The notes beneath the pieces were generated by a model. It made no database searches and was not told the DNA's origin. It was given only the letters and a program-made list of their open reading frames with translations. DNA of 64,000 nucleotides from Eubacteriales bacterium. GTDB lineage: Bacteria; Bacillota; Clostridia; Acetivibrionales; JANLFN01. The stretch lies in contig JANLFN010000005.1 of NCBI GenBank assembly GCA_024655885.1, forward strand, positions 116,007-180,006. The letters are read 5' to 3'. Shown piece after piece: positions 7,801 to 31,541 of this stretch; within the stretch, counting starts at the first letter, position 1, and each line of letters begins with the position of its first letter. A program made the position numbers and the translations under genes.

Positions 7801-7969
7801 ACCGGAGCCGTCGGACGAGAGGGAAGTAATGGAGCATGAAAGATTCCCCATGAGGTACCTGGATCCCGAGACAAGGAAGTCGTCTTTCGATGAGGTGGCT
7901 GTCGGGTTTTATAAGCTCAATGCGGTTGAAGAGGCCATGAGGTGCTTAAGGTGCGACAGGAGGGCATGA
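4871..7969 (+). CDS. hydB: NuoF/HydB-type flavoprotein subunit fused to a GltD/NfnB-type Fe-S + FAD/NAD(P)H oxidoreductase domain (1032 aa)
   Basis: N-terminal Trx-like 2Fe-2S region (CSGAGC...CIGDCNLGP). NuoF core with GRGGGGFPTGVKW and ESCGKCVPCRVG. This is followed by CQNACPAGV...CGRVCTHPCESKC, GIIGAGPSGLTCGYYLARLG and VIGGGNTAVDAART. Confidence 0.88.
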   Translation: MDGKLAVRRAEDLENIKNQYLSENSRYQYRVLVCSGAGCISSNCHAVKDALVKALQDSNLCDRVSVSETGCIGDCNLGPAMVVLPEGVLYTKLDPKDVGPIVDSHFLKGRIRMENTYYDIPKEKHIPFLKDIDYFKNQVKIALRNCGRIDYASLEEYIANDGYKSIARVLQDMTPAEVVKEIKKSGLRGRGGGGFPTGVKWEEGMKSEGDVKYIVCNADEGDPGAYMDRSILEGDPHSIIEGMMIGAYAIGASKGYVYIRAEYPLAVERLDTAIKKAREAGLLGENILESGFNFELEIRIGEGAFVCGEETALIASIEGKRGEPEQKPPYPSQKGLYGKPTVINNVETFANIPPIILKGSEWFTQYGTQGSKGTKVFALAGSVNNAGIVEVPMGITVGDIVFNIGGGIKKNKQFKALQSGGPSGGCVTKDHLNTPIDYDSLVKLGSIMGSGGLIALDEDTCMVDMAKYFMEFVQEESCGKCVPCRVGTKRMLEILERITKGEGQNGDIELLQEIGQMIKETSVCGLGQTAPNPVLSTIKSFREEYEEHIKYKHCRAGVCENMFISPCQNACPAGVNVPGYIALIAAGRLRDAYNLIRKENPFPAVCGRVCTHPCESKCRRAQLDDPIAISDLKRYVTDYVFKNEEPYMDLVFPKKGISVGIIGAGPSGLTCGYYLARLGYDVEVYEAHQVAGGVLAFGIPEFRLPKDILQHEIKLIERVGVKIHLNTEVGTDITFYQLRNKHAAIYIATGTQFPHKINIPGEELKEVYYGMDFLRYVSLGKKPKVTGTVAVIGGGNTAVDAARTALRLGAKKVYILYRRLIEDMPADARDVREAIEEGIEILPLVTPLRFLGKDRVTGVECIRMEFGEFDSTGRRKPKPIHGTEFTIKVDAVIPAISLYSDLPFINKNEVEVTQWGTFVADNDTLMTKMKGVFAGGDVIRGSDVVISAIADGKKAAKSIDKYLGGNGILNTGEDIEIPEPSDEREVMEHERFPMRYLDPETRKSSFDEVAVGFYKLNAVEEAMRCLRCDRRA

Positions 7970-9753
7970 CGATGGTAAACTTGACAATCAACAACAAAAA
8001 GATATGTGCGGCAGAGGAAATGACCATTCTTGAGGCGGCAAAGCAGAATAACATATTAATCCCCCATTTTTGCTCCATGGAGGGGATCCACCAGATAGGC
8101 TCATGCAGGATATGCGTCGTCGAGGTGGAGGGTGAAAAGACACTGCAGGCCTCCTGCAAGATCCGTGTAAAAGAGGGAATGGTTGTTTATACGAATACCG
8201 AAAAAGTGAAAAAAGCCCGGAAGCTGTTATATGAGCTGATGCTTTCCGACCACCCCAAGGACTGTTTAAATTGTACCAGAAACCAGAACTGTGAGTTTCA
8301 ACGGCTTGGTGAAATCATACAGGTCAGTGAATCCAGGTTTGAAGGCGAAAAATCGAAACCGGACAGGGACGATTCTTCTCCCTCCATCGTCAGGGATACC
8401 GCCAAATGCATCCTGTGCAGGCGCTGTGTAACCGTATGCAACGATGTGCAGGAAATTGGGGTGCTGAATGTTCAAAAACGCGGGTTTCATTCATTTGTGG
8501 GTCCAGCGGCGGGGCTTCCGCTCAACAGCGTCAACTGCACCTACTGCGGGCAGTGCATTAATGTTTGTCCTGTGGGAGCGCTGCAGGAAAAGGATTCCAC
8601 CCAGATGGTGTGGAATGCCCTGTATGACAGAAACAAGAGGGTCATAGTGCAAACCGCTCCTTCGGTGAGGGTGTCCCTTGGAGAAGAATTCGGATACGAA
8701 CCGGGTACGGTTGTGACGGGAAAAATGGTTACGGCCCTCCGTGATATAGGTTTTAACGATGTTTTTGATACAAGCTTTGGAGCGGATTTGACAGTTCTGG
8801 AAGAAAGCCATGAGCTGTTAAAGAGGATAAAAAATTCCTTTCTGGCAAAACAAGCGGCGCTGCCTATGATAACAAGCTGCAGTCCGGGCTGGATCAAGTA
8901 TTTCGAGCATGTTTTTCCCGAAAGGCTGGAACACCTGTCTACCTGCAAATCTCCCCACATGATGCTTGGGGCTTTGATAAAAACGTACTATGCGGATAAA
9001 ATAAAAGTAAATCCAAAGGATATTTTTGTAGTTTCGGTCATGCCGTGTACGGCAAAGAAATTTGAAATCACGAGACCTGAGCTGAAAAATAACGGCTTTC
9101 CCAATGTAGATGCGGTTTTGACAACCCGGGAGCTGGCGAGGATGATAAAAGAAGCGGGAATCGATTTCAGGAATCTGGAGGAGGGCGAATTTGATACTCC
9201 TCTGGGAATATCGGCAGGAGCGGGCAACCTGTTCGGAGCGGCCGGAGGCGTAGCGGAAGCGGTTTTAAGAACCGTTTACAGGACGGTCACGGGAAGGGAG
9301 CTTCAGCCGGGAATGGTTCACATACGTTCCATAAAAGGACAGGAGCACATCAAAGCCCTTGAGGTGAAAATAGAGAACACGGTGGAGGAATACAGGTTCA
9401 TAGACGGTGAAACACTTAAAGTGGCTGCAGCAAGCGGCATGAAGGGGATGAAAGCCTTTATGGAACAGCTGGAGGACGGTACCTCCCCGTACCACTTCAT
9501 TGAAGTTATGGGATGCCCCGGCGGTTGTATAAACGGCGGCGGGCAGCCGAGACCCAGCAACGAGTATGTGAGGAAAAAGCGTATGGAAGCGGTTCACAGC
9601 ATCGACAGGGGCAAAGCCTTAAGAGGCTCTCATGAAAATCCGGCCATAGCAAAGCTGTATGAGGAATTCCTGGCCGAACCGCTGGGAAAGAAGTCCGGTG
9701 AGCTGCTGCATACCAAATACACAAAAAGAGGAATCTATAACGAACTTATCTAA
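7966..9753 (+). CDS. hydA: [FeFe]-hydrogenase catalytic subunit, M3-type (2Fe-2S, His-ligated 4Fe-4S, 2x4Fe-4S, H-domain)
   Basis: Motifs HPKDCLNCTRNQNC, MPCTAKKFE and EVMGCPGGCINGGGQP are present. The first H-cluster motif reads TSCSPGW. The ATG at 7966 overlaps the hydB stop (ATGA). Confidence 0.9.
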   Translation: MTMVNLTINNKKICAAEEMTILEAAKQNNILIPHFCSMEGIHQIGSCRICVVEVEGEKTLQASCKIRVKEGMVVYTNTEKVKKARKLLYELMLSDHPKDCLNCTRNQNCEFQRLGEIIQVSESRFEGEKSKPDRDDSSPSIVRDTAKCILCRRCVTVCNDVQEIGVLNVQKRGFHSFVGPAAGLPLNSVNCTYCGQCINVCPVGALQEKDSTQMVWNALYDRNKRVIVQTAPSVRVSLGEEFGYEPGTVVTGKMVTALRDIGFNDVFDTSFGADLTVLEESHELLKRIKNSFLAKQAALPMITSCSPGWIKYFEHVFPERLEHLSTCKSPHMMLGALIKTYYADKIKVNPKDIFVVSVMPCTAKKFEITRPELKNNGFPNVDAVLTTRELARMIKEAGIDFRNLEEGEFDTPLGISAGAGNLFGAAGGVAEAVLRTVYRTVTGRELQPGMVHIRSIKGQEHIKALEVKIENTVEEYRFIDGETLKVAAASGMKGMKAFMEQLEDGTSPYHFIEVMGCPGGCINGGGQPRPSNEYVRKKRMEAVHSIDRGKALRGSHENPAIAKLYEEFLAEPLGKKSGELLHTKYTKRGIYNELI

Positions 9754-20757: not shown

Positions 20758-20815
20758 GGTAAAAAGCAATAATTTAACGGCTTATACGTGAAATTAAAGA
20801 TAGAGGTGAATGATT

Positions 20816-23407
20816 ATGAATATGGAAAAATTTACAGAAAAGGCGCAGGAAGCTGTGGCTACTTCCCAGGAGATTGCAATCAGGTATGGAAACCAGCAGG
20901 TGGACGGAGAGCATTTGCACCTTGCCCTTTTGACCCAGGAGGAGGGTCTGATCCCCCGGCTTATAAACTTTATGGAGGAAAATGTAGGCTTGGTTATAAA
21001 GGACGTTGAAAGGGAGCTGGAAAAGCTGCCCAAGGTCTACGGCGGATCAGCCAGCCTGTATGCCGGCCGGAGGTTTAACGAGCTGCTGCTCCATGCAGAG
21101 GATGAAGCGAGGAAGTTTAAGGATGAATACGTAGGTGTAGAGCATATTTACCTGGCCCTGTTGAAGGAGAGAAATACTCCTTCGGAGGCTGTGTTTAAGC
21201 GTTATGGAATCAATTACGAAAAATTTCTGGCAGCGTTGAGCAAGGTGAGAAGCAACCAGCGCATCACCTCAAAAAATCCCGAGGAAACTTACGATGCGTT
21301 AAACCGGTTTGGAAGGGACCTGGTGGAGCTGGCCAGGAGCGGAAAGGTGGATCCGGTCATTGGAAGGGATACGGAGATCAGGCGGGTTATCAGGATCCTT
21401 TCAAGAAGAACCAAGAACAATCCGGTTTTGATAGGGGAACCGGGGGTAGGAAAAACCGCTGTGGTGGAAGGCCTTGCCCAGCGCATGCTTAAAGGGGATG
21501 TGCCGGAAGGGCTTAAAAACAGGACCATCTATGCCCTGGACATGGGGTCCCTGATTGCAGGCGCCAAATACAGGGGAGAATTTGAAGAACGGCTGAAAGC
21601 GGTTTTGAATGAAGTGGAAAAATCCCAGGGCAGGATTATCCTGTTCATTGATGAGCTCCACAATATTGTGGGCGCAGGTAAGGCTGAAGGAGCCATGGAT
21701 GCGGGCAACATCCTGAAACCCATGCTTGCAAGGGGCGAGCTTCACTGCATAGGGGCCACCACCCTGGATGAATACAGGAAGTACATAGAAAAAGATGCCG
21801 CCCTAGAAAGGAGGTTCCAGCCTGTTATGGTGGACCAGCCTTCGGTAGAGGATACCATATCCATATTAAGGGGCTTGAAGGAGAGGTTTGAAATCCACCA
21901 TGGAGTGAGGATAACGGATAATGCCATTATTGCTAGTGCCGTTTTGTCAAACCGGTATATCAGCGACAGGTTTCTCCCGGATAAGGCCATTGACCTTATG
22001 GATGAGGCGGCTTCCATGATCAGGACCGAGATTGACAGCATGCCTGCGGAACTTGATGAAATAAGCCGGAAAATCATGCAGCTTGAAATAGAAAGGCAGG
22101 CCCTGAAAAAAGAGGATGAAAGGGACTCAAAGGAAAGGCTTGAAGCCCTGGAAAAGGAAATCTCAGGCCTAAAGGACAGGGCGAACAGCATGAAGGCCCA
22201 GTGGGAGCTTGAAAAGGGCTATATAAAAAAGGAAAAGGAATTGAAAGAGCAGATAGAGGAGGTTAAAAGGCAGATTGAAGAGGCGGAGAGAAAATATGAC
22301 TTAAATGAGCTGGCCATCTTGAGGCATGGAAAACTGCCTGAACTGGAACGACTTCTGGGAGAGGAAAAGGCAAGGCAGAAAACGGGAAGCGGAAAAAGGC
22401 TGCTTAAGGAAGAAGTCACTGAGGAGGAAATTGCGGAGATTGTATCCAGATGGACAGGGATTCCTGTCACCAAACTGGTTGAAAATGAAAGGGAAAAGCT
22501 ATTAAATCTGGAAGAGGTTTTGCACAGGAGGGTTATAGGACAGGAGGAAGCGGTAACTGCCGTTTCGGATGCGGTCATCAGGGCGAGGTCCGGACTCAAG
22601 GACCTGAGAAAACCCATCGGTTCCTTTATATTCCTTGGACCTACCGGGGTGGGCAAGACTGAGCTTGCCAAAGCACTTTCGGAAGCCCTGTTTGACAGTG
22701 AAGAGAATATTGTCCGGATAGATATGAGCGAGTACATGGAAAAGCACACCGTTGCAAGACTCATCGGAGCGCCTCCCGGATATGTGGGATATGAGGAGGG
22801 GGGCCAGCTTACCGAAGCCGTCAGGAGAAAACCTTACTGCGTAATCCTTTTTGACGAGATCGAAAAAGCTCACAGCGACGTGTTCAACGTGCTGCTGCAG
22901 ATCCTTGACGACGGAAGGCTCACCGACAGCCAGGGAAGAACGGTGAACTTCAAAAACACCGTGATCATTATGACATCCAATATAGGAAGCCAGTACCTGT
23001 TAAACGGGATCGGCAGCGGCGGTGAGATAGACGAGAAGGCCAAAGAAGAGGTTATGAATGAGTTGAGAAGGAACTTCAAACCGGAGTTCTTAAACCGGAT
23101 TGACGAAACCGTCATGTTCAAACCGCTACTTAAACCGCAGATCATACAAATTATCGAGCTGGCACTGAAAGAAATCCAAAAAAGGCTGGACGACAGGCAC
23201 ATAGCCCTGGAAGTGACGGACAGGGCAAAGCACCTCATTGCGGATACGGCGTATTCTCCGGTTTACGGCGCAAGACCTGTAAAGAGGTACCTGCAGAAGC
23301 ATATTGAAACGGAGATCAGTAAAATGATTATCAGAGGGGAACTGGAGGACAACAGCAAAATCATTATAGACTCCGGTGAAAACGGATTAATCTTTAGGAC
23401 AGCATAG
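20816..23407 (+). CDS. clpB: ATP-dependent chaperone/disaggregase ClpB
   Basis: Two AAA+ modules (GEPGVGKTA and GPTGVGKTE) with a long middle coiled-coil. The start is ATG 20816, 7 nt after GAGGTG. Confidence 0.93.
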
Positions 23408-23767
23408 GGTAAGAATAGGATTAAAGAAGCAAGGGAGAGAAAGTTTATGTGGAAATTGGATCTTGTAGCATAAAAAATAGATTGCAGAATACCAAACAGA
23501 ATAAATTCAATAAAGGCTGAATACTTCGGCTTTGTAGTCATGCTTTTGTTTGAGTTTGGAAAGTAGGCATTGGGAAGTAATTGATGTAATTTAGCTGCAA
23601 TATGGGATTTTTATTAATGTACTACAGGAAAAATTGCTTTCAAGGTGTGTTGAAAGACATGAAATTCCTCTTACAAAAAAATGATGCTTCAGCTGTGCAA
23701 TACAATGCATCCAGTTGTAAAATTGAGGTAATTGATGTACAATATAATGAGATGACTTATGAATGAC

Positions 23768-23958
23768 TTTGCAGGATATTCATTTACCTGAAAAATTTGC
23801 TTCTGATGTGGATCGGACTGTGAAATTTAAAAAAAAGAGGGCCGTGCTGAAGTCTAAATTTTAAGAACTTTACCGATCATTCTGACATTGATATCGCAGA
23901 AAGAGGTTTAACTTCTCAAAAGTATTTTAAGGTTATGGGGAAGCTTTTGAGACTTTAA
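23768..23958 (+). pseudogene. decayed minimal nucleotidyltransferase (MNT-like) remnant
   Basis: Fragments in different frames read LQDIHLPEKFASDVDRTVK..., (E)ILKKEGRAEV and NFTDHSDIDIAERGLTSQKYFKVMGKLLRL. The pieces are separated by stops and by frameshifts around an A8 run. Confidence 0.35.
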
Positions 23959-23990
23959 AAAGATTAAAATAAGCATGAAGGAGTGGTACT

Positions 23991-24971
23991 ATGAACAGTG
24001 TGTTCAAAGACATGCGTGCAAAGGGTAAGCCCTTGGGTAACTTTGAAGATAAGATCGGCAGACTCGGCGAAATTCTTAAACGTGATGATGTCATCAGAAG
24101 CTCTGAGAATTCTCGAAAACAAGGTGAAATACTCGGGAATCCTTTGGATAATGTGCCTTTTTTTAAAAAGTTGATGCTTTCGCCGATTTTGATGAGTATT
24201 ATGAAAGAATTGAATAAAAGCTATGACGGTATAGATACTCCAGTAAAAAAGAACCGGATAAATGAAGAAGAACTCCAAAAAATTGAAAAAAAGGCCAAGG
24301 AATTGGGGGCACTTTCAATCGGATATGCCAGAGTTGATAAGGAAGATATTTTTGAAGGTTACGGGATCGTTTATCCCAATGCTATTGTTTTTACAATTGA
24401 AATGGATAAGGAAAACATCAATAAAGCACCTAGTATTGATACAGCGAAAATGATTATGAAGACCTATGACCAAACCGGTATTGTTGCAAACAAGCTTACG
24501 GAATTCATACGTGAGATGGGCTTTGGCGCGCATGCCGGACCGGGTTTGGGAGGGCTGACAATTTATCCTGTGCTGGCTGAAAAGGCTAACTTGGGTATAA
24601 TCGGAAGACACGGACTGCTTATATCACCAGAAGTTGGTCCAAGATTACGGCTTGCTGTTGTATATACAAATATTGATAACCTTCCGTTAAAAAATGAAAA
24701 TACGCACAAATGGGTTCTGCAATTCTGTAAAAGCTGCGGCAAATGTATCAGGAAGTGTCCTGACGGTGCAATCTATAACACACCAGTTAAAACCAAGGGT
24801 GAGCATGTTTCATATATGGACTATAAAAAATGTGCTGTACATTTTGCCGAATGGTTTGGCTGCACGGTTTGTGTCAAAGAATGTGTGTTTAGCCAGAATG
24901 ACTATCAGGATATCAAAGAAAATTTCTTTCAAAATAAGGATAAGTCCGAAGCGAATGAGTATAAAATGTGA
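23991..24971 (+). CDS. Fe-S oxidoreductase of the reductive-dehalogenase/QueG superfamily (326 aa, no signal peptide)
   Basis: GIIGRHGLLISPEVGPRLRLAVVYTN core, followed by CKSCGKCIRKCP and a second Cys cluster (CAVHFAEWFGCTVCVKEC). Confidence 0.6.
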   Translation: MNSVFKDMRAKGKPLGNFEDKIGRLGEILKRDDVIRSSENSRKQGEILGNPLDNVPFFKKLMLSPILMSIMKELNKSYDGIDTPVKKNRINEEELQKIEKKAKELGALSIGYARVDKEDIFEGYGIVYPNAIVFTIEMDKENINKAPSIDTAKMIMKTYDQTGIVANKLTEFIREMGFGAHAGPGLGGLTIYPVLAEKANLGIIGRHGLLISPEVGPRLRLAVVYTNIDNLPLKNENTHKWVLQFCKSCGKCIRKCPDGAIYNTPVKTKGEHVSYMDYKKCAVHFAEWFGCTVCVKECVFSQNDYQDIKENFFQNKDKSEANEYKM

Positions 24972-25225
24972 CAGGGGACGGTTCTTTGTCACGCAATGCT
25001 CATAAGTGGCATAATCCCCAAAACCTAAACAGGAGGGGGATGCTATGCCAAGACGTATTCGAAGTTTGAGCAGCAGAAAAATATACCATGTGATGGCACG
25101 CGGCAACGAAAGAAAGAACCTATTCATGTAAGAAGACAGAGCAAGGTATATAGAGGCTTTATCCAGGGCCAGAGGGCACTCTTCCGGCGGAATTAAAACA
25201 ATACGCCAAGGGTGCCCTGTTTTTT
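24968..25225 (+). mobile_element. RAYT/IS200-like element remnant, copy A (left terminal unit, truncated Y1-transposase N-terminus, hairpin/T-run; right terminal unit missing)
   Basis: The terminal unit GTGACAGGGGACGGTTCTTTGTCAC spans 24968-24992. An AGGAGG RBS precedes an ORF (25045-25131) reading MPRRIRSLSSRKIYHVMARGNERKNLFM*. The copy is near-identical to copy C. Confidence 0.75.
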
Positions 25226-25242
25226 AAAGTAGGAAACTTGAG

Positions 25243-25686
25243 TTAATTACTTTCTTGTTCAGCAAAATAATTAATAATATTTGAGCCGACTTTTTCTATT
25301 AATTCGAACAGTTGCTCCTTTTGATCCTGGGAAAAGTTCTCTAACATTATTTTATTCCAGGAATCAAGGACATTTTCAAGATACTCCCTAACAGCGGCAG
25401 CTTTTTTTGTAGTATATAATTTTTGGGCCCGTTTATCATCTTCGCTGGTCATTCTAAAAACATAGCCTTCCTTTTCTAACTTTTTAATAGCTCTTGCTGT
25501 TGTGGCCTTGTCTAGTTTTACCAACTTAGAGAGTTGTTCCTGGATAATTCCATTATTATCGTACAACGTCATTAGAAATTGATATTGACCACTTCCTAAA
25601 TTATATTTGTTTAATAATGGGTTAAAAAATATTTGGCTGTACCGATAAATTAATGAAATATGCTTACCGAATCTGTCCGTATCCAT
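25243..25686 (-). CDS. MarR-family transcriptional regulator
   Basis: 147 aa with a winged-helix region (QEQLSKLVKLDKATTARAIKKLEKEGYV). ATG 25686 is preceded by GGAGGA. Confidence 0.85.
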   Translation of the reverse strand: MDTDRFGKHISLIYRYSQIFFNPLLNKYNLGSGQYQFLMTLYDNNGIIQEQLSKLVKLDKATTARAIKKLEKEGYVFRMTSEDDKRAQKLYTTKKAAAVREYLENVLDSWNKIMLENFSQDQKEQLFELIEKVGSNIINYFAEQESN

Positions 25687-25990
25687 TTTTTCCTCCATGA
25701 ATAGGTTATAGTCATGTCTAAAAAATTGAAATATAGTTACATGTGCAATCATTTAATTGTATATAAAATTATTGTCTAAGTAAAGTATCATAAAAGCCTA
25801 TATACTTTGTTTTTATAGATTATCATCATAGGAATTTCAAATATCTATTAAACTCAACGGATTATCATGTATTGTATAATGATAGAATTATACAAAATAA
25901 GTTGCAAATGCAACATTTTGTGTTATAATATAGTTGCATACGCAATTATATTATAACACAATAAAATTAATTCTATAGGAGGTATTTTTT

Positions 25991-27037
25991 ATGATTATTG
26001 ACATCAATATGCACCACCTTCCCGAAGATTTTTTTACCAACGAGAAGATTCTGAATGGTTTTTTGAACACGGCGCCCCGCTCATTTGGAGAGATCGTGAC
26101 TTTGAGTAAAGTACCTGATACCGGCGCCCACCAGCTCACTCTCGAAAAACCAAAAGGCTATCCGAACCTCAACTACGTTGAGGGCGATTATTCACTCGAG
26201 GCTAAGCTTCGGGCGATGGATGACGCCGGCGTCGACAAGGCTATACTTCGCGTGCCGGTTTGGCAGGAGTGGCTACAGCTTGAAACATGCAAGATCGTAA
26301 ATGACAACGCGGCAGACATGTGCAAGCGATCAGGCAGCCGCCTTTATTCGGTCGCTTGTGTTCCGCCCTGGGGAGGTAAGGAGAACATTTATGAGCTCGA
26401 ACGCTGTCTAAAGGAACTCGGAATGGTCGGTGTCCAACTGGCCTGCCATTACGGACAGCTTTACCTCGACGACGAGGCCTTTAAGCCCTACTTGAAGGTT
26501 CTTAACGAGATGAACGTGCCGGTCGTTGTTCATCATACCCCACTGCCGGTCTACTGGCAGTCCATCTATGAATATACGAATCTGCGCCGTGAGTTCGGCC
26601 GCATCGTCGACCAGGGTACTGCTGTGGGACGCGAGTTGTTCAGCGGCATGTTCGACGAATTCCCGAACCTCAAATTCATCCACACCATGTTCGGCGGCAA
26701 CTGGTTTGCAAACTACCACCTGCTTGCGCCCCACAAGAGCAACAAGAAGGAAGCTATATCGCGTTTGGATACCGCCGATGCCGACAGGATTACGCGCTAT
26801 CTGCAGAATAATATCTACTTCGACATGACTCACCCGGCCTCTTGGGGCAAAGCGGAAGTCGAGTGTGCGATCAAGGTCTGCGGCGCCGACCACATGTTGT
26901 TTGGCACTTCGTTCCCGGTGGTCTATGGTTGGATGTCACAAGGTGTCGAGTTTGTCAAAGCTCTGGACATCACAGAGGAGGAACGCGAACTCATCATGAA
27001 TGGGAATGCTCTTCGTCTCTTCAAGCTCGACGTATAG
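25991..27037 (+). CDS. amidohydrolase-2 (ACMSD/LigW-type metal-dependent hydrolase/decarboxylase) family protein
   Basis: 348 aa with N-terminal IDINMHH, a later HH pair (VVVHHTP) and a C-terminal FGTSFP...NALRLF pattern. GC is markedly higher than in the flanks. Confidence 0.75.
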   Translation: MIIDINMHHLPEDFFTNEKILNGFLNTAPRSFGEIVTLSKVPDTGAHQLTLEKPKGYPNLNYVEGDYSLEAKLRAMDDAGVDKAILRVPVWQEWLQLETCKIVNDNAADMCKRSGSRLYSVACVPPWGGKENIYELERCLKELGMVGVQLACHYGQLYLDDEAFKPYLKVLNEMNVPVVVHHTPLPVYWQSIYEYTNLRREFGRIVDQGTAVGRELFSGMFDEFPNLKFIHTMFGGNWFANYHLLAPHKSNKKEAISRLDTADADRITRYLQNNIYFDMTHPASWGKAEVECAIKVCGADHMLFGTSFPVVYGWMSQGVEFVKALDITEEERELIMNGNALRLFKLDV

Positions 27038-27130
27038 GAGGAAGGCAATGATTGAAGTTCTTTATGCGGTGTGTGTGACTGGTTATGTTGCAATATTCTG
27101 CTGTTAAAAACGTCCCAAACTGCAGAAGGT

Positions 27131-27405
27131 ATGGAACGTTTCAAAACGGATGCAGATAGATTCAGAGGTTACTTTAAGGAAAATTTATTCTTTGATATGT
27201 TGCACGCTGGGCCGTGGGGTAAAGAACAAGTAGAGTGTGCGATTAAAGCATGTGATGCTGACCATGTTTTTTTGGCTCTTCTTATCCTGTTAGACATGAG
27301 TGGCTGATCAAAGGCATTGATTATGTTAAGAGCCTGAATGTCAGCGGAGAAGAAAAAGCTTTGGTTCTCGGTGGAAATGCACAAAGATTATTTAATATTC
27401 GATAA
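27131..27405 (+). pseudogene. 3' remnant of a paralogous amidohydrolase-2 gene (5'-truncated and frameshifted)
   Basis: ERFKTDADRFRGYFKENLFFDMLHAGPWGKEQVECAIKACDADH aligns to residues ~255-300 of the intact gene. Adding 1 nt in the T7 run at 27267-27273 restores VFFGSSYPVRHEWLIKGIDYVKSLNVSGEEKALVLGGNAQRLFNIR*. Confidence 0.8.
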
Positions 27406-27445
27406 GCTGAGTATTAAAGAACTATTTAGTTTTAAATCTGTATGT

Positions 27446-27488
27446 TTTACCCAGGATAACCTAATTTTATAAAGTTATCCTGGGTAAA
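27446..27488. terminator. 15-bp perfect hairpin (TTTACCCAGGATAAC / GTTATCCTGGGTAAA)
   Basis: Read directly. It lies between the amidohydrolase remnant and the MarR remnant. Confidence 0.6.
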
Positions 27489-27564
27489 TCTAGAAAGGAA
27501 AAAATTGAAAATCCCATGTGTATTTATGAATAAAGAATGTTTTTCTACTTGCTTACCTGAATAT

Positions 27565-27747
27565 TCATTGGAGAATGAAAATTAACTTAGAAAGCTGTTC
27601 CTGGATAATTTCATTATTATCGTATAAAGTCATGAGAAACTGGTATTGGCCACTTCCTAAACCATATTTGCTTAATAATGGATTAAGAAATAAATGGCTG
27701 TACCGATAAATTAATGAAATATGTTTGCCGAATCTGTCCGTGTCCAT
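27565..27747 (-). pseudogene. 5' remnant of a paralogous MarR gene, with a duplicated copy of its promoter region
   Basis: MDTDRFGKHISLIYRYSHLFLNPLLSKYGLGSGQYQFLMTLYDNNEIIQEQLSKL is near-identical to the N-terminus of 25243-25686 and then diverges to a stop. 27748-27880 resembles 25687-25830. Confidence 0.8.
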
Positions 27748-27919
27748 TATTACCCCCATTAATAAAGTCATTTCTAACAAGTGAAATATAGTTACATATG
27801 CAACCATTTAATTGTACATAAAATTATAGGCTAAGTAAAGTATTATAAAAGCCAATATCTATGTTTTGATAAATTATTATCTCGTCAAGAGTAAATAAAC
27901 ACCCTTTTCAAGGGCGCTC

Positions 27920-27948
27920 TTGACATGTCATTTGCTTTTCTCTATAGT
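27920..27948 (+). promoter_or_regulatory. orphan sigma-A-type promoter TTGACA-17-TATAGT
   Basis: Read directly. It is followed by a 9-bp hairpin (27957-27987), and no ORF precedes the hairpin/T-run of element copy B. Confidence 0.4.
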
Positions 27949-28033
27949 ATAATCAAGGCTTGTAAACCAACATCTGGCTTACAAGCCCCAAAAGATCATC
28001 ATAGAAAGCAATTTACAGAAAAAGTTTCACATA

Positions 28034-28118
28034 ATCCAGGGCGCTCTTCCGGCGGAATTAAAACAACACGCCAAGGGTGCCCTGTTTTTTAGTGCGACAA
28101 AGAACCGTCCCCTGTCGC
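28034..28118 (+). mobile_element. RAYT/IS200-like element remnant, copy B (hairpin/T-run plus right terminal unit only)
   Basis: ATCCAGGGCGCTCTTCCGGCGGAATTAAAACAACACGCCAAGGGTGCCCTGTTTTTT is followed by GCGACAAAGAACCGTCCCCTGTCGC (28094-28118). The latter is the inverted form of the copy A left unit. Confidence 0.75.
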
Positions 28119-28145
28119 ATGCAACAAATGAAAATACATGCCATC

Positions 28146-29036
28146 TCATTTCCATTCATGATTTGAGACAGTATCTATGAAAACTTGTATGGAAGAATCC
28201 AGATTGCCTTTCCGCCAGGCTAATGACATATCTAAGTAAACCTCTGTGCTATCAAAATCAATATAAACAATTTTAGGGTTATCAAACCTCCGGAAGGAAC
28301 GGGGAACAGGGGATACACCCAAACCTGAAGCTACCATTGCTATAGCGCTTTCGTATTTCGATACCAGTGTAGCTTTTTTCATATCGACACCTGCCCTTAA
28401 CAACCTGTAGTGGATTTTAGACAGACTGATAGGTGCAAATTGATTATTGGACATGATTACTCTTACTCCGTCCAGATCTTGTGCCGAAATACTGCTTTTT
28501 GAAGCAAGCGGATGGTGAACGGGGACAGCGAGACAGGCAAATTCTCTAAAGAGTAATCTTTGCTCTATTTCAGGCATGTTTTCTATTTCAGATTTCTCTA
28601 TAAAAATGACATCTAGGGAATCCTTAATCAACATTTCCTTTAACTCACCCCATCCGGCAATTTGTAATTCAATGTGAATATTAGGATGATCCTGGTAAAA
28701 TCTACTCAGAACGTCAGGTAACAGTGCCCAATCTACCGGACCATGATAACCGACCCTTAGGGAGGAACCCTCTTCAATAGATATTTGTTTTGCTTTCAGC
28801 AATGCTTTTTCATATAGAGACATAACATTTTCCAACTCTTTTTTTAGACACTCCCCAGCAGCTGTGAGCTTTACATAATGTTTATTACGAATGAAAAGTT
28901 TTGCTCCAATCTCTTTTTCCATAGCGTTGATTTGGGATGTAATAGTGGATTGCGCGACAAATTGCTCTTCAGCTGCTCTTGTAAAATTTAAATGTTTTGC
29001 AACACTTAAAAAACACTTAATAGTATGTGTATTCAA
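28146..29036 (-). CDS. LysR-family transcriptional regulator
   Basis: 296 aa with an N-terminal HTH (FLSVAKHLNFTRAAEEQFVAQSTITSQINAMEKEIG) and a LysR substrate-binding region. Confidence 0.88.
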   Translation of the reverse strand: MNTHTIKCFLSVAKHLNFTRAAEEQFVAQSTITSQINAMEKEIGAKLFIRNKHYVKLTAAGECLKKELENVMSLYEKALLKAKQISIEEGSSLRVGYHGPVDWALLPDVLSRFYQDHPNIHIELQIAGWGELKEMLIKDSLDVIFIEKSEIENMPEIEQRLLFREFACLAVPVHHPLASKSSISAQDLDGVRVIMSNNQFAPISLSKIHYRLLRAGVDMKKATLVSKYESAIAMVASGLGVSPVPRSFRRFDNPKIVYIDFDSTEVYLDMSLAWRKGNLDSSIQVFIDTVSNHEWK

Positions 29037-29395
29037 GCAACCTCCTCCTATTCGTCCACTTATATTATATTATAGTAGATATCCGTGCTTTATTAAATAT
29101 TAAAAAATATCTATGTTTATTAATATATTACCTTCATCTATTCCCGAAATTTTGTAATTGATTTATTCGATTATATAAGCAAAAATATGAATTTCCATAT
29201 GTTTTTTGATTGGGCTATAATACAGTTGAACTCGTAAATTCTAATGTTCATGCCACAGCAGTCCTATGCTTCAAGCTTAAGAGAACAATGTGATGTTTGT
29301 TGGAGGTATGGGCGAAATTTCAGACCTCATAACATAGGACTCGAAAGCAGTTAGAGTCTACGATGGAATTAAAAAACATAGGGGGGTAGAATGAA

Positions 29396-30955
29396 TTGAG
29401 GAAAGGTAAAAAAATACTAGCGTTGTTTTTGGCATTGTTGGTGGTAATTAGTATTGCAGGTTGCAGCTCACCAACTGGCAATGAAAAACAAACAGCGGCT
29501 CCCGCTACGCCTACAGCTATGGATACCGCCACTAAACAAGCTGATGTTGTAGTTGTCGGGAGTGGTATGGCCGGTATGTCGGCGGCAATTGAAGCAGCCA
29601 GTCAAGGTGCGAAAGTAATTTTGTTGGAAAAAATGGGTGTTCTAGGTGGAAGCACAAATCATGCTGAAGGTATGTTCGCCAGTGAAAGTCCGCTTCAAAA
29701 GAAATTGGGCATCACGGTTAACACGGAGGAATTGTTAAGGGAAGAGTTCAACTTTTCAAACTATAGAGTGGACGGCAACCTGTGGAAAGATGTCATGAAA
29801 CATTCAGGCGAGGATATTCAATGGCTCCTCGATATGGGCGTAAAGTTTGAAACGGTAACCAGTACAGGTGCCGGCGCGAAGACATGGCATGTGTATGAAG
29901 GATTTGGAGAAAAAGTAATTAACGCATACATGAAGCCAAAAGCCGAAAAGCTTGGCGTGGAGATCCTGCTTGAAACTCCTGCCAAAGAGCTTATCATGAA
30001 AGATGGACAGGTGGCCGGTGTTAAAGCAACTACGAAGGACGGAAAAGAATTAGCCATTAGTGCGAAGGCCGTTGTTCTCGCAACAGGCGGTTTTGGAAAC
30101 AATGAGCAAATGGTTAAAGAATTTACGCATGCTACCAAAGAAAAATATGTTGACAGGGGTGCGCCCGGACATACGGGTGACGGAATCAACATGGCGAAAG
30201 CAGCCGGTGCCCTTACGGGTGAACGTGCGATCGTCATGCAGCTGGGAAATACGCTGGAAAGTTCTTTTATTACTACACATATTAATGCAGCAGCCGGCAT
30301 GGAACCGTCTCTTTGGGTGAATCAAGACGGTAAGCGTTTTTGCAATGAGGATGTTATTTGGTATTATACCCGCGGCAGCAATGCAATCATGTCACAATAT
30401 AAAACCTTTACCGTTTTGGACAGCAACGAGGTTAAGAGGCTTGCTACCGAAGGTGCTACCGTTGGCTACGGCATGTATGTAACCCCCGGCACAAAATTGG
30501 ATAAATTGGAGGCTGAGCTTCAGAAGGCGGTTGCTGATAAAGCTCCCGATGTATTTAAAGCTGATACAATTGAAGAGCTTGCAGCCAAAATGGGGGTTGA
30601 CAAAGCTAATTTCGTAGAAACTGTCAATACCTACAACGCTTTTTGTGCGAATGGAAAAGACCTTGATTACGGCAAGAATCCCAAGTATCTTCATGCTGTG
30701 AAAACCGGTCCGTTTTACGGCTTCCGCGTAAAAGCAAATAACCTCACTTCCTGTGGTGGTATAAGAATCAATGAGAATTGTGAAGCATTGAATAAAGATT
30801 ACCAACCGATCAAAGGACTTTATGTTGCAGGAATGGATTGTGACGGCTTTACCGGTGATACCTACGGATTAACGATTCCCGGTTCAGCTCAAGGTTATTC
30901 TTGTTACACCGGTAGAACCAGCGGGAAAAATGCCGCTCAGTATGCCAAGCAATAA
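29396..30955 (+). CDS. lipoprotein-anchored FAD-dependent reductase of the fumarate/urocanate reductase flavoprotein family (FAD_binding_2)
   Basis: Lipobox LVVISIAGC|SS after a basic N-terminus. The dinucleotide fold VVVVGSGMAGMSAAIEAA is present. The C-terminal GLYVAGMDCDG motif is typical of soluble flavocytochrome-type reductases. TTG start after AGGGGGG. Confidence 0.75.
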   Translation: MRKGKKILALFLALLVVISIAGCSSPTGNEKQTAAPATPTAMDTATKQADVVVVGSGMAGMSAAIEAASQGAKVILLEKMGVLGGSTNHAEGMFASESPLQKKLGITVNTEELLREEFNFSNYRVDGNLWKDVMKHSGEDIQWLLDMGVKFETVTSTGAGAKTWHVYEGFGEKVINAYMKPKAEKLGVEILLETPAKELIMKDGQVAGVKATTKDGKELAISAKAVVLATGGFGNNEQMVKEFTHATKEKYVDRGAPGHTGDGINMAKAAGALTGERAIVMQLGNTLESSFITTHINAAAGMEPSLWVNQDGKRFCNEDVIWYYTRGSNAIMSQYKTFTVLDSNEVKRLATEGATVGYGMYVTPGTKLDKLEAELQKAVADKAPDVFKADTIEELAAKMGVDKANFVETVNTYNAFCANGKDLDYGKNPKYLHAVKTGPFYGFRVKANNLTSCGGIRINENCEALNKDYQPIKGLYVAGMDCDGFTGDTYGLTIPGSAQGYSCYTGRTSGKNAAQYAKQ

Positions 30956-30978
30956 TCTCATTCCTTGGCAGCTTCCCA

Positions 30979-31188
30979 TTGCTCTTTGTGGATGAATACG
31001 GTAAAAGGTTCATTAATGAGCAGGTATTCAAAGAACAAGCCCTCAATGTAGGAAATGGGAAAATCATTGATAAGCGAGATTATTTCGTTTTTATGGATAA
31101 GCCAAATGTTGATTCTCTCGGTGGCGTTGAAATCAATACCAAAGCTGAAGCTGTAAATAACTATTTTTGCTCTTTCCTTGAGCAATAG
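30979..31188 (+). pseudogene. heavily deleted remnant of a paralogous flavoprotein reductase
   Basis: LFVDEYGKRFINEQV resembles LWVNQDGKRFCNEDV, and LGGVEINTKAEAVNN resembles CGGIRINENCEALNK of the intact gene. Confidence 0.5.
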
Positions 31189-31249
31189 ACGAAATAAACA
31201 AATTTCTTGGTAGTATCAACGATACAGCTCAACAGACAAACCTTCTATA

Positions 31250-31541
31250 TGTGACAGGGGACGGTTCCTCGACACACATGCTCATAAATGGCATAGTCTC
31301 CCAAACCTAAACAGGAGGGGGATGCTATGCCAAGACGTATTCGTAGCTTGAGCAGCAGCAAAATATACCGTGTGATGGTACGCGGCAACGAAAGAAAGAA
31401 CCTATTCATGGATGAAGAAGGCAGAGCAAGGTATGTAGAGGCTTTATCCAGGGCTGCAGGGCACTCTTCCGGCGGAATTAAAGCAAACACGCCAAGAGTG
31501 CCCTGTTTTGTGAAGTGTGACAAAGAACCGTTCCCTGTCAC
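31250..31541 (+). mobile_element. RAYT/IS200-like element, copy C: complete 292-bp non-autonomous (MITE-like) derivative with both terminal units
   Basis: The left unit is GTGACAGGGGACGGTTCCTCGACAC (31250-31274). The right unit is GTGACAAAGAACCGTTCCCTGTCAC (31517-31541), in inverted orientation. The internal ORF begins MPRRIRSLSSSKIYRVMVRGNERKNLFMDEEGRARYVEAL, a Y1-transposase N-terminus, and then runs into the hairpin. Confidence 0.8.

Follow-up and report, generated by a model that had tools for sequence, protein, structure and literature searches.

Our analysis of a 64-kb stretch of DNA from a Eubacteriales metagenome-assembled genome (MAG), hereafter the window, leads us to propose that it carries a MarR-controlled catabolic cassette whose enzyme gene was swapped by horizontal transfer, a reading to which we assign a probability of roughly 65%. 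As judged from nucleotide alignment, a 1.1-kb segment (25992-27092), consisting of a complete Amidohydro_2 open reading frame of a subfamily we call type A together with 55 nt of 3′ flank, is shown to share very recent ancestry with a marR-linked O-demethylase operon of Desulfosporosinus fructosivorans, and its surroundings to be anciently diverged or unalignable between the two loci. A preliminary description of this DNA had proposed that most of one amidohydrolase copy was overwritten by a foreign high-GC allele. Overwriting by a foreign allele is strongly supported by the D. fructosivorans comparator (90.6% identity, dS 0.22), by the saturated divergence of the adjoining marR gene and by the scar of a second, type-B amidohydrolase; the label "high-GC" applies only in a relative sense, and the hybrid 5′ end that was part of the proposal is not upheld. 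Gene swaps by horizontal transfer are ordinary, well-documented biology, and the locus reveals no new mechanism or system. The features of the locus are as follows.

25243-25698, minus strand: marR1, an intact, AT-rich gene for a MarR-family regulator of 151 aa (from MEEKMDTDRF; the frame stays open up to 25752)
25699-25990, no strand assigned: divergent promoter/operator region P1, supported by promoter scan, repeats and box pattern
25736-25749, 25901-25914 and 25933-25946: palindromic boxes GTTGC-N4-GCAAC, the second over the −35 and the third after the −10 hexamer of the next entry
25902-25907 and 25921-25929: predicted amidohydrolase promoter in P1 (promoter scan), −35 TTGCAA and extended −10 TGtTATAAT
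25977-25982: ribosome-binding site AGGAGG
25991-27037, plus strand: intact type-A Amidohydro_2 gene, 348 aa, the imported reading frame (PF04909, GC3, identity to D. fructosivorans)
27038-27092, plus strand: donor-type 3′ non-coding flank of 55 nt, carried in with the reading frame
27093-27405, plus strand: low-GC 3′ remnant of a type-B amidohydrolase gene, its last 104 codons and stop (homology to the type-A C-terminus and to type-B genes)
27446-27488, plus strand: hairpin with 20-nt arms, 3′ of the remnant stop (inverted repeat I3, 90% complementary)
27584-27881, minus strand: marR′, a 5′ fragment of a second marR (~55-76 codons; translation MDTDRFGKHISLIYRYSHLF...), with the marR-proximal part of a second promoter region, P′
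27791-27804: box GTTACATATGCAAC of P′, within the marR′-P′ fragment

Base composition

In 200-nt windows, GC content is 0.47-0.56 between 26.0 and 27.0 kb, 0.21-0.35 directly upstream and 0.27-0.41 downstream. The best two-breakpoint segmentation of this profile has a change-point LLR of 68.6, against a maximum of 11.3 in the 100 shuffles that served as null, and puts the left break after position 26067 (support interval 25998-26072). The GC jump that had been noticed over the amidohydrolase is therefore borne out as a discontinuity in the computed profile, and the accompanying estimates, a GC in the mid-40s for the window and an AT-rich marR, agree with computed values of 0.449 for the whole 64 kb and 0.318 for marR1 (GC3 0.312, z −4.7 vs host). 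Two anomalies of opposite sign add up to this jump. For most genes of the window GC lies at 0.45-0.51 and GC3 at 0.544 ± 0.049; the type-A gene (GC 0.521, GC3 0.650) stands merely 2.2 sd above the host in GC3, with a Karlin codon-usage distance of z +2.7 vs 43 host genes, and the genes adjoining it (GC3 0.31-0.42) stand 2.5 to 4.7 sd below. All genes in 23.4-31.5 kb are compositionally atypical for the host. The allele is thus GC-richer than its surroundings, but the implied source probably had a GC of only ~50% and the flanks are anomalously AT-rich for this host.

We considered whether the gene could be native, with a GC content set by amino-acid or codon constraints of its family. In most low-GC hosts the gene does lie a few points of GC above its own flanks. 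Across 31 orthologues, however, GC3 follows the GC of the flanks (r 0.92) and is as low as 0.35 in AT-rich hosts; there is therefore no intrinsic constraint, and elevated GC as a family property is ruled out. The window and D. fructosivorans alleles lie +1.9 to +4.8 sd above this 31-orthologue trend, and in a set of 24 low- and mid-GC loci the two-sided local GC step is greatest in the window.

Shared ancestry with an O-demethylase operon

A sequence search for the donor lineage of the patch, as had been suggested, led to the marR-amidohydrolase-O-demethylase operon of D. fructosivorans 63.6F (NZ_SPQQ01000019, locus L006). Positions 25992-27092 align with L006 5002-6100 as a single HSP of 90.6% identity that begins at base 2 of the start codon, is perfect over its first 44 nt and ends at 27092; outside it nothing aligns except marR, at ~72% over 220 nt, and the upstream spacers are unalignable. 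The type-A reading frames are 91.5% identical in nucleotides and 87.9% in amino acids with a dS of 0.217, whereas synonymous differences between marR1 and its D. fructosivorans counterpart are saturated (pS 0.766). ClpB indicates that D. fructosivorans is not a close relative of the host: the closest named relatives of the host protein are from Clostridiaceae and Acetivibrionales MAGs and Pseudobacteroides (79-82%), and no Desulfosporosinus occurs among its best 120 matches. The discordance in dS between enzyme and marR, together with the distant ClpB, rules out vertical descent. Since the 90.6% identity is confined to the patch, with marR saturated, the spacers unalignable and ClpB distant, we interpret the reading frame and its 55-nt flank as a recent horizontal patch. 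The contigs of the nearest host relatives (ClpB 87-88%) both end within ~230 nt after clpB.

Both loci have a divergently oriented marR and a conserved operator box, and the elevated GC and the 3′ flank of the type-A gene are the same in each. They differ in what follows the gene. In D. fructosivorans a 430-nt GC-rich spacer precedes genes for a methyltransferase, a pterin-binding protein and a corrinoid protein, with no type-B remnant; in the window these operon partners are absent and a type-B remnant begins after 55 nt. An intact locus of similarly high GC with no remnant had been named beforehand as evidence against replacement if found in close relatives. D. fructosivorans has such a locus, but it is not a close relative, and in its genome (GC 42.3%; PMC6675983) the type-A gene is compositionally discordant too, which strengthens the case for horizontal transfer.

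The scar of the displaced gene

The 55-nt flank aligns with L006 6048-6100 as part of the same HSP and has no match to any other orthologous locus. A tiny reading frame with a ribosome-binding site at 27049-27108 (MIEVLYAVCVTGYVAIFCC) was considered as the start of the donor's next gene and set aside as probably not a gene: its D. fructosivorans equivalent has nine codons, and the 430-nt spacer there matches nothing else. At the junction, 27092|27093, the donor flank and the type-B gene overlap by 1 nt, and the imported segment adjoins codon ~243 of the type-B gene.

Aligned with residues 243-346 of the intact type-A protein, the remnant shows 45% identity (47/104, E 5e-35); it has a GC of 0.394 and scores 23.6 bits against PF04909, just under the cut-off of 26.4 (profile positions 224-288). 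Its sole lesion is the loss of one nucleotide in the T7 run 27267-27273, which causes a frameshift. The broken paralogue of the preliminary description, and the lesion in its T run, are thus real, the fragment being longer than the ~90 codons claimed. It does not represent a recent duplicate of the same gene, as had been supposed, but belongs to a distinct subfamily (type B, ~62% aa identity). Comparison of the two groups indicates that they are coexisting paralogous subfamilies, found together in at least one other genome. The hairpin downstream of the remnant probably represents the old 3′ end structure of the type-B gene, and the type-B gene of Propionispora has a hairpin at the equivalent position; the one in the window was not called by the terminator scan because it is not followed by a U-tract.

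Intact type-B genes exist elsewhere (346 aa, GC3 0.34-0.39), and the remnant shares 70-74% aa and 72-78% nt identity with the type-B genes of three loci (L005, L088 and L089). Searches for closer relatives returned three fragments from proteins and, from metagenomes, only two clear type-B loci at 71-74% aa identity to the remnant, neither of them close. As a model for the resident unit that was displaced, none available comes closer than the unit of Propionispora sp. 2/2-37 (CYSP01000004, L005), in which a divergent marR (64% aa) faces a low-GC type-B gene whose 3′ end is 70% identical to the remnant in amino acids. Unlike the window, it has a full-length type-B gene, with an in-frame TAG at a conserved Gln codon, and no type-A gene in the 16 kb examined.

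Because the window comes from a MAG, we weighed an assembly artefact, namely a metagenomic chimera in which two amidohydrolase genes were linked through their conserved 5′ ends, and the first 44 nt of the reading frame are the type of conserved stretch that is prone to assembler mis-joins. Against this, the type-A flank and the type-B gene share no k-mer at the right junction, which therefore cannot be a graph mis-join, and an identical junction-bearing sequence recurs in two assemblies whose contigs differ in length (485 kb and 107 kb) and which may derive from the same sample. We consider an artefact or a native gene very improbable. A contig carrying a remnant-derived reading frame (L004, P0122) was rejected as an independent comparator: it is 100% identical to the window over 13 kb and holds no comparative information.

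The regulator, its promoters and a second marR copy

marR1 matches the MarR profiles PF01047 (53.3 bits) and PF12802 (42.5 bits), and its product is 64% identical to the Propionispora and 60% to the D. fructosivorans regulator. P1 also contains a 20-nt inverted repeat (25918-25961) and a three-copy direct repeat, D4. Where 0.7 occurrences of the pattern GTTGC-N4-GCAAC would be expected, the window has four, two of which fall in P1 and P′; in Propionispora and in D. fructosivorans, too, similar boxes precede the amidohydrolase gene. By position and symmetry these palindromes fit putative MarR operators that would overlap the −35/−10 region of the divergent gene and that of marR. Rfam searches gave one tRNA at 42.5 kb and nothing else at gathering thresholds over the window, and at relaxed thresholds on 24900-28200 and L006 nothing, including no riboswitch in the spacer.

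The second marR 5′ end and promoter copy that had been seen downstream are borne out: 27584-27881 is 85% identical over 305 nt to 25523-25827. With the same order and orientation at this level of identity, a decaying tandem duplication of a marR-amidohydrolase unit is plausible. The second copy has no enzyme gene, no 3′ half of marR and no surviving duplication junction. Its 15% divergence is also compatible with independent acquisition, and a model in which adjacent units were trimmed by deletion fits equally well.

In full, the deletion model runs as follows. Three adjacent cassettes, marR1-P1-A (with its spacer), marR-P-B and marR′-P′-X, would have been fused by one deletion running from 55 nt past the type-A stop to type-B codon ~243, and later deletions would have trimmed marR′ and its target gene; type A would be horizontally derived but would never have replaced type B in situ. 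A 1-nt overlap at the right junction is what illegitimate deletion is expected to leave, the region is deletion-prone (marR′ is truncated and the repeat elements described below are split), and the two subfamilies lie 10 kb apart on one metagenome contig. Moreover, several other Firmicutes have a marR of this family (49-62% aa) linked to a type-A gene, in D. fructosivorans as a direct and divergent neighbour, and so marR1-P1-A could be an original pairing rather than a capture. Yet this scenario needs one cassette and one marR more than are observed, and it does not account for an identity to D. fructosivorans that breaks off precisely at the start codon on one side but extends through 55 nt of non-coding sequence on the 3′ side. 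In addition, P1 resembles P′ in its marR-proximal part (85-89% identity), and this likeness links marR1-P1 with the AT-rich resident family rather than with the GC-richer import. We regard deletion fusion as unlikely, though as the likeliest alternative to replacement in situ.

The 5′ end of the imported gene

The first ~70 nt of the gene were correctly described as AT-rich (GC 0.35 over ~75 nt). As a sign of a hybrid gene, however, this has no value, since it is a trait of the family found in every orthologue from low- and mid-GC genomes (0.29-0.43). An intragenic hybrid was also suggested by a type-B-like KILNGFLN motif. Within type A the residues concerned, I20, N22 and N26, have frequencies of 40%, 44% and 5%, and we read them as common or otherwise explainable polymorphisms that are not diagnostic; a hybrid is neither supported nor excluded. 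The left breakpoint can be placed solely between the start codon and nt ~80, because types A and B are too similar over the first ~75 nt and the 5′ end of the resident type-B gene does not survive. The left crossover being thus beyond exact location, we infer the single homologous anchor invoked below.

Repeat elements on either side

A 2.8-kb block (25227-28037) that contains the whole locus lies between two parts of a repeat element.

24966-25226, plus strand: E1, the left part of a putative miniature RAYT/IS200-like element, with a REP-like hairpin, a putative truncated transposase N-terminus (MPRRIRSLSSRKIYHVMARGNERKNLFM) and the terminator-like repeat D3; bounds the block on the left
28037-28120, plus strand: E2, the right end of the same element type, with D3 and an inverted REP-like hairpin; bounds the block on the right

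E1 is 89% identical to a complete copy, E3, at 31249-31516, and E2 is 89% identical to 31457-31539. The outer ends of E1 and E2 form inverted repeat I1 (24966-24990 vs 28096-28120, 96% complementary). The MPRR..IYHVM.RGN of the element resembles the N-termini of RAYT proteins, to which we presume it is related; Pfam gave no match to the 28-aa reading-frame fragment.

This arrangement raises the question of whether the mosaic was built in another organism and the block arrived ready-made, integrating at the element, for example as a circular intermediate through one crossover in the 54-nt D3. In a three-way alignment the left part and D3 of E1 and the D3 and right hairpin of E2 jointly rebuild one complete element like E3, the block sits exactly between two D3 copies (25173-25226 and 28038-28091) that are 96% identical in a family of elements otherwise at 89%, and the atypical composition extends to all genes of the 23.4-31.5 kb stretch. 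In the collections searched, however, neither the block nor its junctions turned up a second time, and within the window the elements are confined to the AT-rich island, with which they may have come. We think a ready-made arrival improbable as an account of the locus; it would change the place of the replacement and not its nature. Given the 54-nt direct repeat that bounds the block inside the split element, the swap itself could have taken place in another genome before the block arrived.

A possible route to the exchange

To return to replacement in situ, we envision a resident unit marR←P→amidoB, of the kind found in Propionispora, in which incoming DNA of a ~50% GC source took the place of the first ~70% of amidoB. 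One of the crossovers would have fallen at or just inside the start of the reading frame, where types A and B are most alike and the upstream operator architecture is shared; the other join, 55 nt past the type-A stop, would have been illegitimate, making this a case of homology-facilitated illegitimate recombination. The new reading frame would thereby have captured the resident ribosome-binding site, sigma-70 promoter and putative MarR operators, whose boxes overlap the −35 and the transcription start, with MarR1 as its probable repressor and a phenolic ligand as its probable inducer. The truncated marR′-P′ would be the relic of a second, older unit, and the block would now lie between the halves of the repeat element, inside an AT-rich island of phenolic metabolism next to clpB.

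In situ xenologous (paralogous) gene displacement is a concept of comparative genomics, and most described cases have been inferred from phylogeny alone. As in those cases, a homologue of other origin replaces a gene in a conserved regulatory and positional context, and adjoining genes are discordant in divergence and composition. The window differs in that a scar remains (104 codons of the displaced gene and 55 nt of donor flank), and the event can for that reason be mapped to the base on one side. Homology-facilitated illegitimate recombination is known from bacteria with natural transformation, among them Acinetobacter and Streptococcus pneumoniae. The likeness lies in a patch with one end at a stretch conserved between donor and recipient and the other at ~1 nt of microhomology, with recipient DNA deleted; the candidate anchor here is short (less than ~80 nt of reading frame plus operator motifs) and diverged. 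The locus would thus offer a natural case of the rewiring of a catabolic cassette, with a foreign reading frame behind a resident sensor and promoter and one breakpoint mapped to the base, and a datable one (dS ~0.2) of transfer between orders of anaerobic Firmicutes that metabolise phenolic compounds and derivatives of lignin.

In this MAG and in D. fructosivorans alike, the same allele, probably from a source of ~50% GC, is compositionally discordant exactly from the start codon on, behind anciently diverged promoters that MarR would control. It is conceivable, if a long shot, that the type-A reading frame is a recurrently exchanged cassette and that an ORF-precise, homology-guided swap among paralogous amidohydrolase subfamilies occurred in two unrelated Firmicutes. 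If true, the conserved first 45-75 nt, the conserved MarR operator or both would act as a landing pad, and substrate specificity would be exchanged while sensor and promoter are kept.

The enzyme

The type-A protein matches PF04909 with 99.6 bits (cut-off 26.4) over residues 68-346. Its best matches of solved structure are 4qs5 and 4inf (E ~1e-19, residues 70-346), together with 3s4t, 2dvt and 4ofc, and its best solved-structure relatives overall (LigW/LigW2, gamma-resorcylate decarboxylase and ACMSD) have E values of 1e-19 to 1e-13. No NCBIfam model, equivalogs included, matches the protein; in the literature we found no characterised member of the subfamily, and the DCB-2 genome paper does not mention the amidohydrolase. 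Type A shares its Pfam family and contexts of aromatic-acid metabolism with the 5-carboxyvanillate decarboxylases LigW/LigW2, gamma-resorcylate decarboxylase and ACMSD. It differs from them in showing remote similarity only and in forming a distinct, very conserved clade, and on this evidence we do not consider it orthologous to LigW, gamma-resorcylate decarboxylase or ACMSD as specific enzymes. These relationships suggest an ACMSD/LigW-type metal-dependent non-oxidative decarboxylase (or hydratase) that would act on a hydroxy- or methoxy-substituted aromatic acid.

Members of the subfamily are 68-87% identical from Firmicutes/Clostridia to Actinobacteria. Their neighbours in other genomes include components of O-demethylases, MFS transporters, dienelactone hydrolase, FAD hydroxylases and LysR or MarR regulators, and so conserved and uncharacterised an Amidohydro_2 subfamily, often beside O-demethylases, merits biochemical characterisation. 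The copy in the window looks functional by its sequence, deviating at two (L14F and G116S) of 121 near-invariant columns (at least 98% conserved in its own subfamily). On the branch of the window and D. fructosivorans alleles dN/dS is 0.27, compared with ~0.1 for deeper pairs, which could mean relaxed constraint.

Composition of the locus

The preliminary description had reported a sharp jump in GC at an amidohydrolase gene, and sliding windows, GC3 and likelihood segmentation all bear it out. In a window with an overall GC of 44.9%, values climb from 0.21-0.35 over marR and the adjoining spacer to 0.47-0.56 in the amidohydrolase gene and return to 0.27-0.41 downstream. The left change-point falls after 26067 (support interval 25998-26072; LLR 68.6 versus at most 11.3 in shuffled sequence).

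Genes of the locus
20810-23407, clpB; an AT-rich stretch begins directly after it and extends to ~31.5 kb
23991-24971, reductive-dehalogenase-like Fe-S protein (TIGR02486 at 91 bits, below cut-off)
25243-25698, minus strand, marR (MarR family), divergent partner of the amidohydrolase gene
25991-27037, plus strand, Amidohydro_2 gene of type A, 348 aa (PF04909, 99.6 bits)
28146-29036, LysR regulator of the island, paired with the flavoprotein
29396-30955, vinyl-phenol-reductase-like flavoprotein (NF053717 at 479 bits, below the cut-off of 600)

With the 43 non-island ORFs of the window as the host reference (GC3 0.544 +/- 0.049), the type-A gene has a GC3 of 0.650 (+2.2 sd) and codon usage atypical for the host (Karlin B 0.452, z +2.7), and its neighbours marR (0.312), LysR (0.327), the Fe-S protein (0.382) and the flavoprotein (0.419) lie at -2.5 to -4.7 sd. 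The jump combines two departures of opposite sign: the island is AT-rich, and the gene embedded in it is GC-richer.

A recent patch shared with Desulfosporosinus fructosivorans

A scan of species-representative genomes recovered 80 orthologous loci. The best, L006 from D. fructosivorans 63.6F, carries a divergent marR, the amidohydrolase, a 430-nt spacer and O-demethylase components (URO-D-type methyltransferase, pterin-binding protein and corrinoid protein). Window positions 25992-27092 align with L006 5002-6100 in one HSP at 90.6% identity, which opens with 44 perfect matches at base 2 of the start codon and runs through 55 nt past the stop; beyond it only marR aligns (~72% over 220 nt). By the Nei-Gojobori method the amidohydrolase pair has a dS of 0.217 and a dN of 0.058, whereas the adjacent marR pair is saturated (pS 0.766, dN 0.33). 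The nearest named relatives of the host ClpB, at 79-82%, are Clostridiaceae and Acetivibrionales MAGs and Pseudobacteroides, and by this marker the host is not related to Desulfosporosinus. Together, the identity to L006, the discordance of marR and the distant ClpB argue firmly that 25992-27092 is a recent horizontal patch. The replacement proposed earlier is supported and acquires a comparator.

The identity to L006 ends exactly at 27092, where similarity to the low-GC paralogous subfamily, type B, starts. Three-frame translation of 27038-27420 reveals a type-B C-terminus from NILL (27092-27094 onward) to the TAA at 27403-27405, with one frame switch at a 1-nt deletion in the T7 run 27267-27273. 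Once corrected, it comprises 104 residues, which match positions 243-346 of the intact protein at 45% identity (E 5e-35). The frameshifted paralogue end described previously thus keeps its estimated identity and its T7 lesion and is ~14 codons longer than was thought. The second marR 5' fragment and promoter copy proposed with it is also present: 27584-27881 matches 25523-25827 at 85% identity, covering the first ~55-76 marR codons and the marR-proximal promoter region. A tandem duplication of a marR/amidohydrolase unit is a plausible candidate origin.

Probable displacement of the type-B gene

The right junction is illegitimate, with a 1-nt overlap, and the left end of the patch falls where A and B share their most conserved sequence. 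We infer that a resident B gene had its first ~243 codons replaced, with a homology anchor on one side only. Assembly chimerism is unlikely, because no k-mer is shared at the right junction and the identical sequence is present in two assemblies. Horizontal in situ gene displacement is a familiar process, of which the locus is a tidy example; it does not represent a novel type of system.

For the left breakpoint, the data allow any position from the start codon to about nt 80. AT-richness at the gene start had been taken as a hint of a hybrid gene; it is real, but the hint is not supported, since the first 75 nt (GC 0.29-0.43), encoding a conserved MIIDINMHHLPEDLFTNEK motif, are AT-rich in every orthologue from low- and mid-GC genomes. 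The window protein has B-like residues at I20 and N22, which 40-44% of type-A proteins also carry, and at N26, which 5% carry; each is separated from L006 by a single G-to-A transition. Elsewhere, identity to L006 drops to 0.78 around codons 33-50 (26087-26146), a variable loop with an extra Pro42 in the window, and over 26500-26900 the more distant type-A allele L001 is as close to the window gene as L006 (0.92-1.00). Such unevenness could reflect mosaicism among A alleles or merely uneven constraint.

Relatives of the remnant are few: a protein search gave only three fragments, and a metagenome scan gave two clear type-B loci, L088 and L089, with full-length uninterrupted genes (346 aa, GC3 0.34-0.39). 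Among isolate genomes, a type-B amidohydrolase linked to marR was found solely in Propionispora sp. 2/2-37 (L005), where the two genes diverge and operator-like boxes resemble those of the window. In this B gene (7344-8384) an in-frame TAG takes the place of a conserved Gln codon (D*GTA for DQGTA), either a nonsense mutation or a sequencing error, and the annotation splits the gene into two ORFs, 207 and 127 aa long. Type-B genes seem to be lost easily.

A and B proteins are ~62% identical. An intact B gene (L088) and a type-A gene (L110, 83% aa identity to that of the window, with a marR homologue 3 kb downstream) lie ~10 kb apart on one 297-kb contig, Ga0316602_10000004 (~40% GC); judged from this coexistence, A and B are paralogous subfamilies, not alleles. 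A deletion joining adjacent A and B cassettes is a rather unlikely source of the window arrangement. Homologues of marR (49-62% aa) also accompany type-A genes in several Firmicutes, so this marR family is not exclusive to type B.

Likely source of the patch

Elevated GC as a family trait was rejected: among 31 orthologues from hosts below 62% GC, GC3 follows flank GC (r 0.92), reaching as low as 0.35 where the host is AT-rich. The window allele exceeds this trend by 1.9 sd relative to its host and by 4.8 sd relative to its local flanks, and the L006 allele exceeds it by 2.4 to 3.6 sd; the D. fructosivorans genome has 42.3% GC (PMC6675983). Read off the trend, the source would have had about 50% GC. 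The window also has the largest two-sided local GC step (+0.21 upstream, +0.20 downstream), followed by L006 (+0.20, +0.10); none of the remaining low- and mid-GC loci exceeds about 0.11 on one side and 0.06 on the opposite one. Given its elevated allele and its two-sided step, D. fructosivorans probably received the allele as well and was not its original donor. Its 430-nt spacer (L006 6048-6481, 48-49% GC), which separates the amidohydrolase from the first O-demethylase gene, contains no ORF of note and no Rfam hit, and no other locus matched it except for a 51-nt piece in the window; the spacer probably survives from the donor.

Putative regulation and function

The imported ORF would sit behind resident signals.

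Predicted regulatory features
25736-49, third GTTGC-N4-GCAAC box
25901-14 and 25933-46, palindromic putative operator boxes GTTGC-N4-GCAAC, overlapping the promoter
25902-07 and 25921-29, good predicted resident sigma-70 promoter (-35 TTGCAA; extended -10 TGtTATAAT)
25977-25982, resident RBS AGGAGG
27791-804, fourth box, in the promoter copy beside the truncated marR

The imported ORF is probably under classical MarR repression, lifted by a phenolic ligand. The type-A protein looks functional, deviating at 2 of 121 near-invariant columns; dN/dS is raised on the window/L006 branch (0.27). It matches no curated equivalog, and its nearest relatives of solved structure are LigW/LigW2, gamma-resorcylate decarboxylase and ACMSD (E 1e-19 to 1e-13). 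Orthologue neighbours (O-demethylase genes, DAPG-hydrolase-family proteins, MFS transporters, DUF3500, dienelactone hydrolase, FAD hydroxylases and FAA hydrolase) point to a role in aromatic-acid catabolism, which the Fe-S protein, LysR regulator and flavoprotein of the island fit.

Repeat elements around the block

Copies of the miniature element E
24966-25226, E1, half element
28037-28120, E2, half complementary to E1, sharing the core repeat D3 with it (96% identical)
31249-31539, E3, complete copy

The element (~290 nt) has REP-like terminal inverted hairpins (TGTGACAGGGGACGGTTC...) and the terminator-like 54-nt core D3. Its ~40-codon N-terminal ORF fragment resembles a RAYT/IS200 transposase. 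E1 and E2 bracket the entire marR/amidohydrolase block, as if it had integrated into one E element. A mosaic built elsewhere could then have arrived as one 2.8-kb block, in keeping with its position between the two D3 copies of the split element; we regard this as improbable, and prefer displacement in place.

Within 27920-28091, a predicted near-consensus sigma-70 promoter (TTGACA-17-TATAGT, 11/12) precedes a stable hairpin, AGGCTTGTAA...TTACAAGCC, and then the D3 hairpin and a T-run. This ~140-nt unit, with no ORF and no Rfam match, could specify a small RNA or be a promoter relic.

The whole stretch after clpB, 23408-31539, is compositionally atypical (gene GC3 0.31-0.42, host mean 0.54), encodes phenolic-compound functions and is probably a genomic island built of modules with E elements between them. 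The two metagenome contigs with the nearest ClpB relatives (87-88%), L143 and L144, both end within ~230 nt 3' of clpB, where the region could be repetitive or variable in this lineage.
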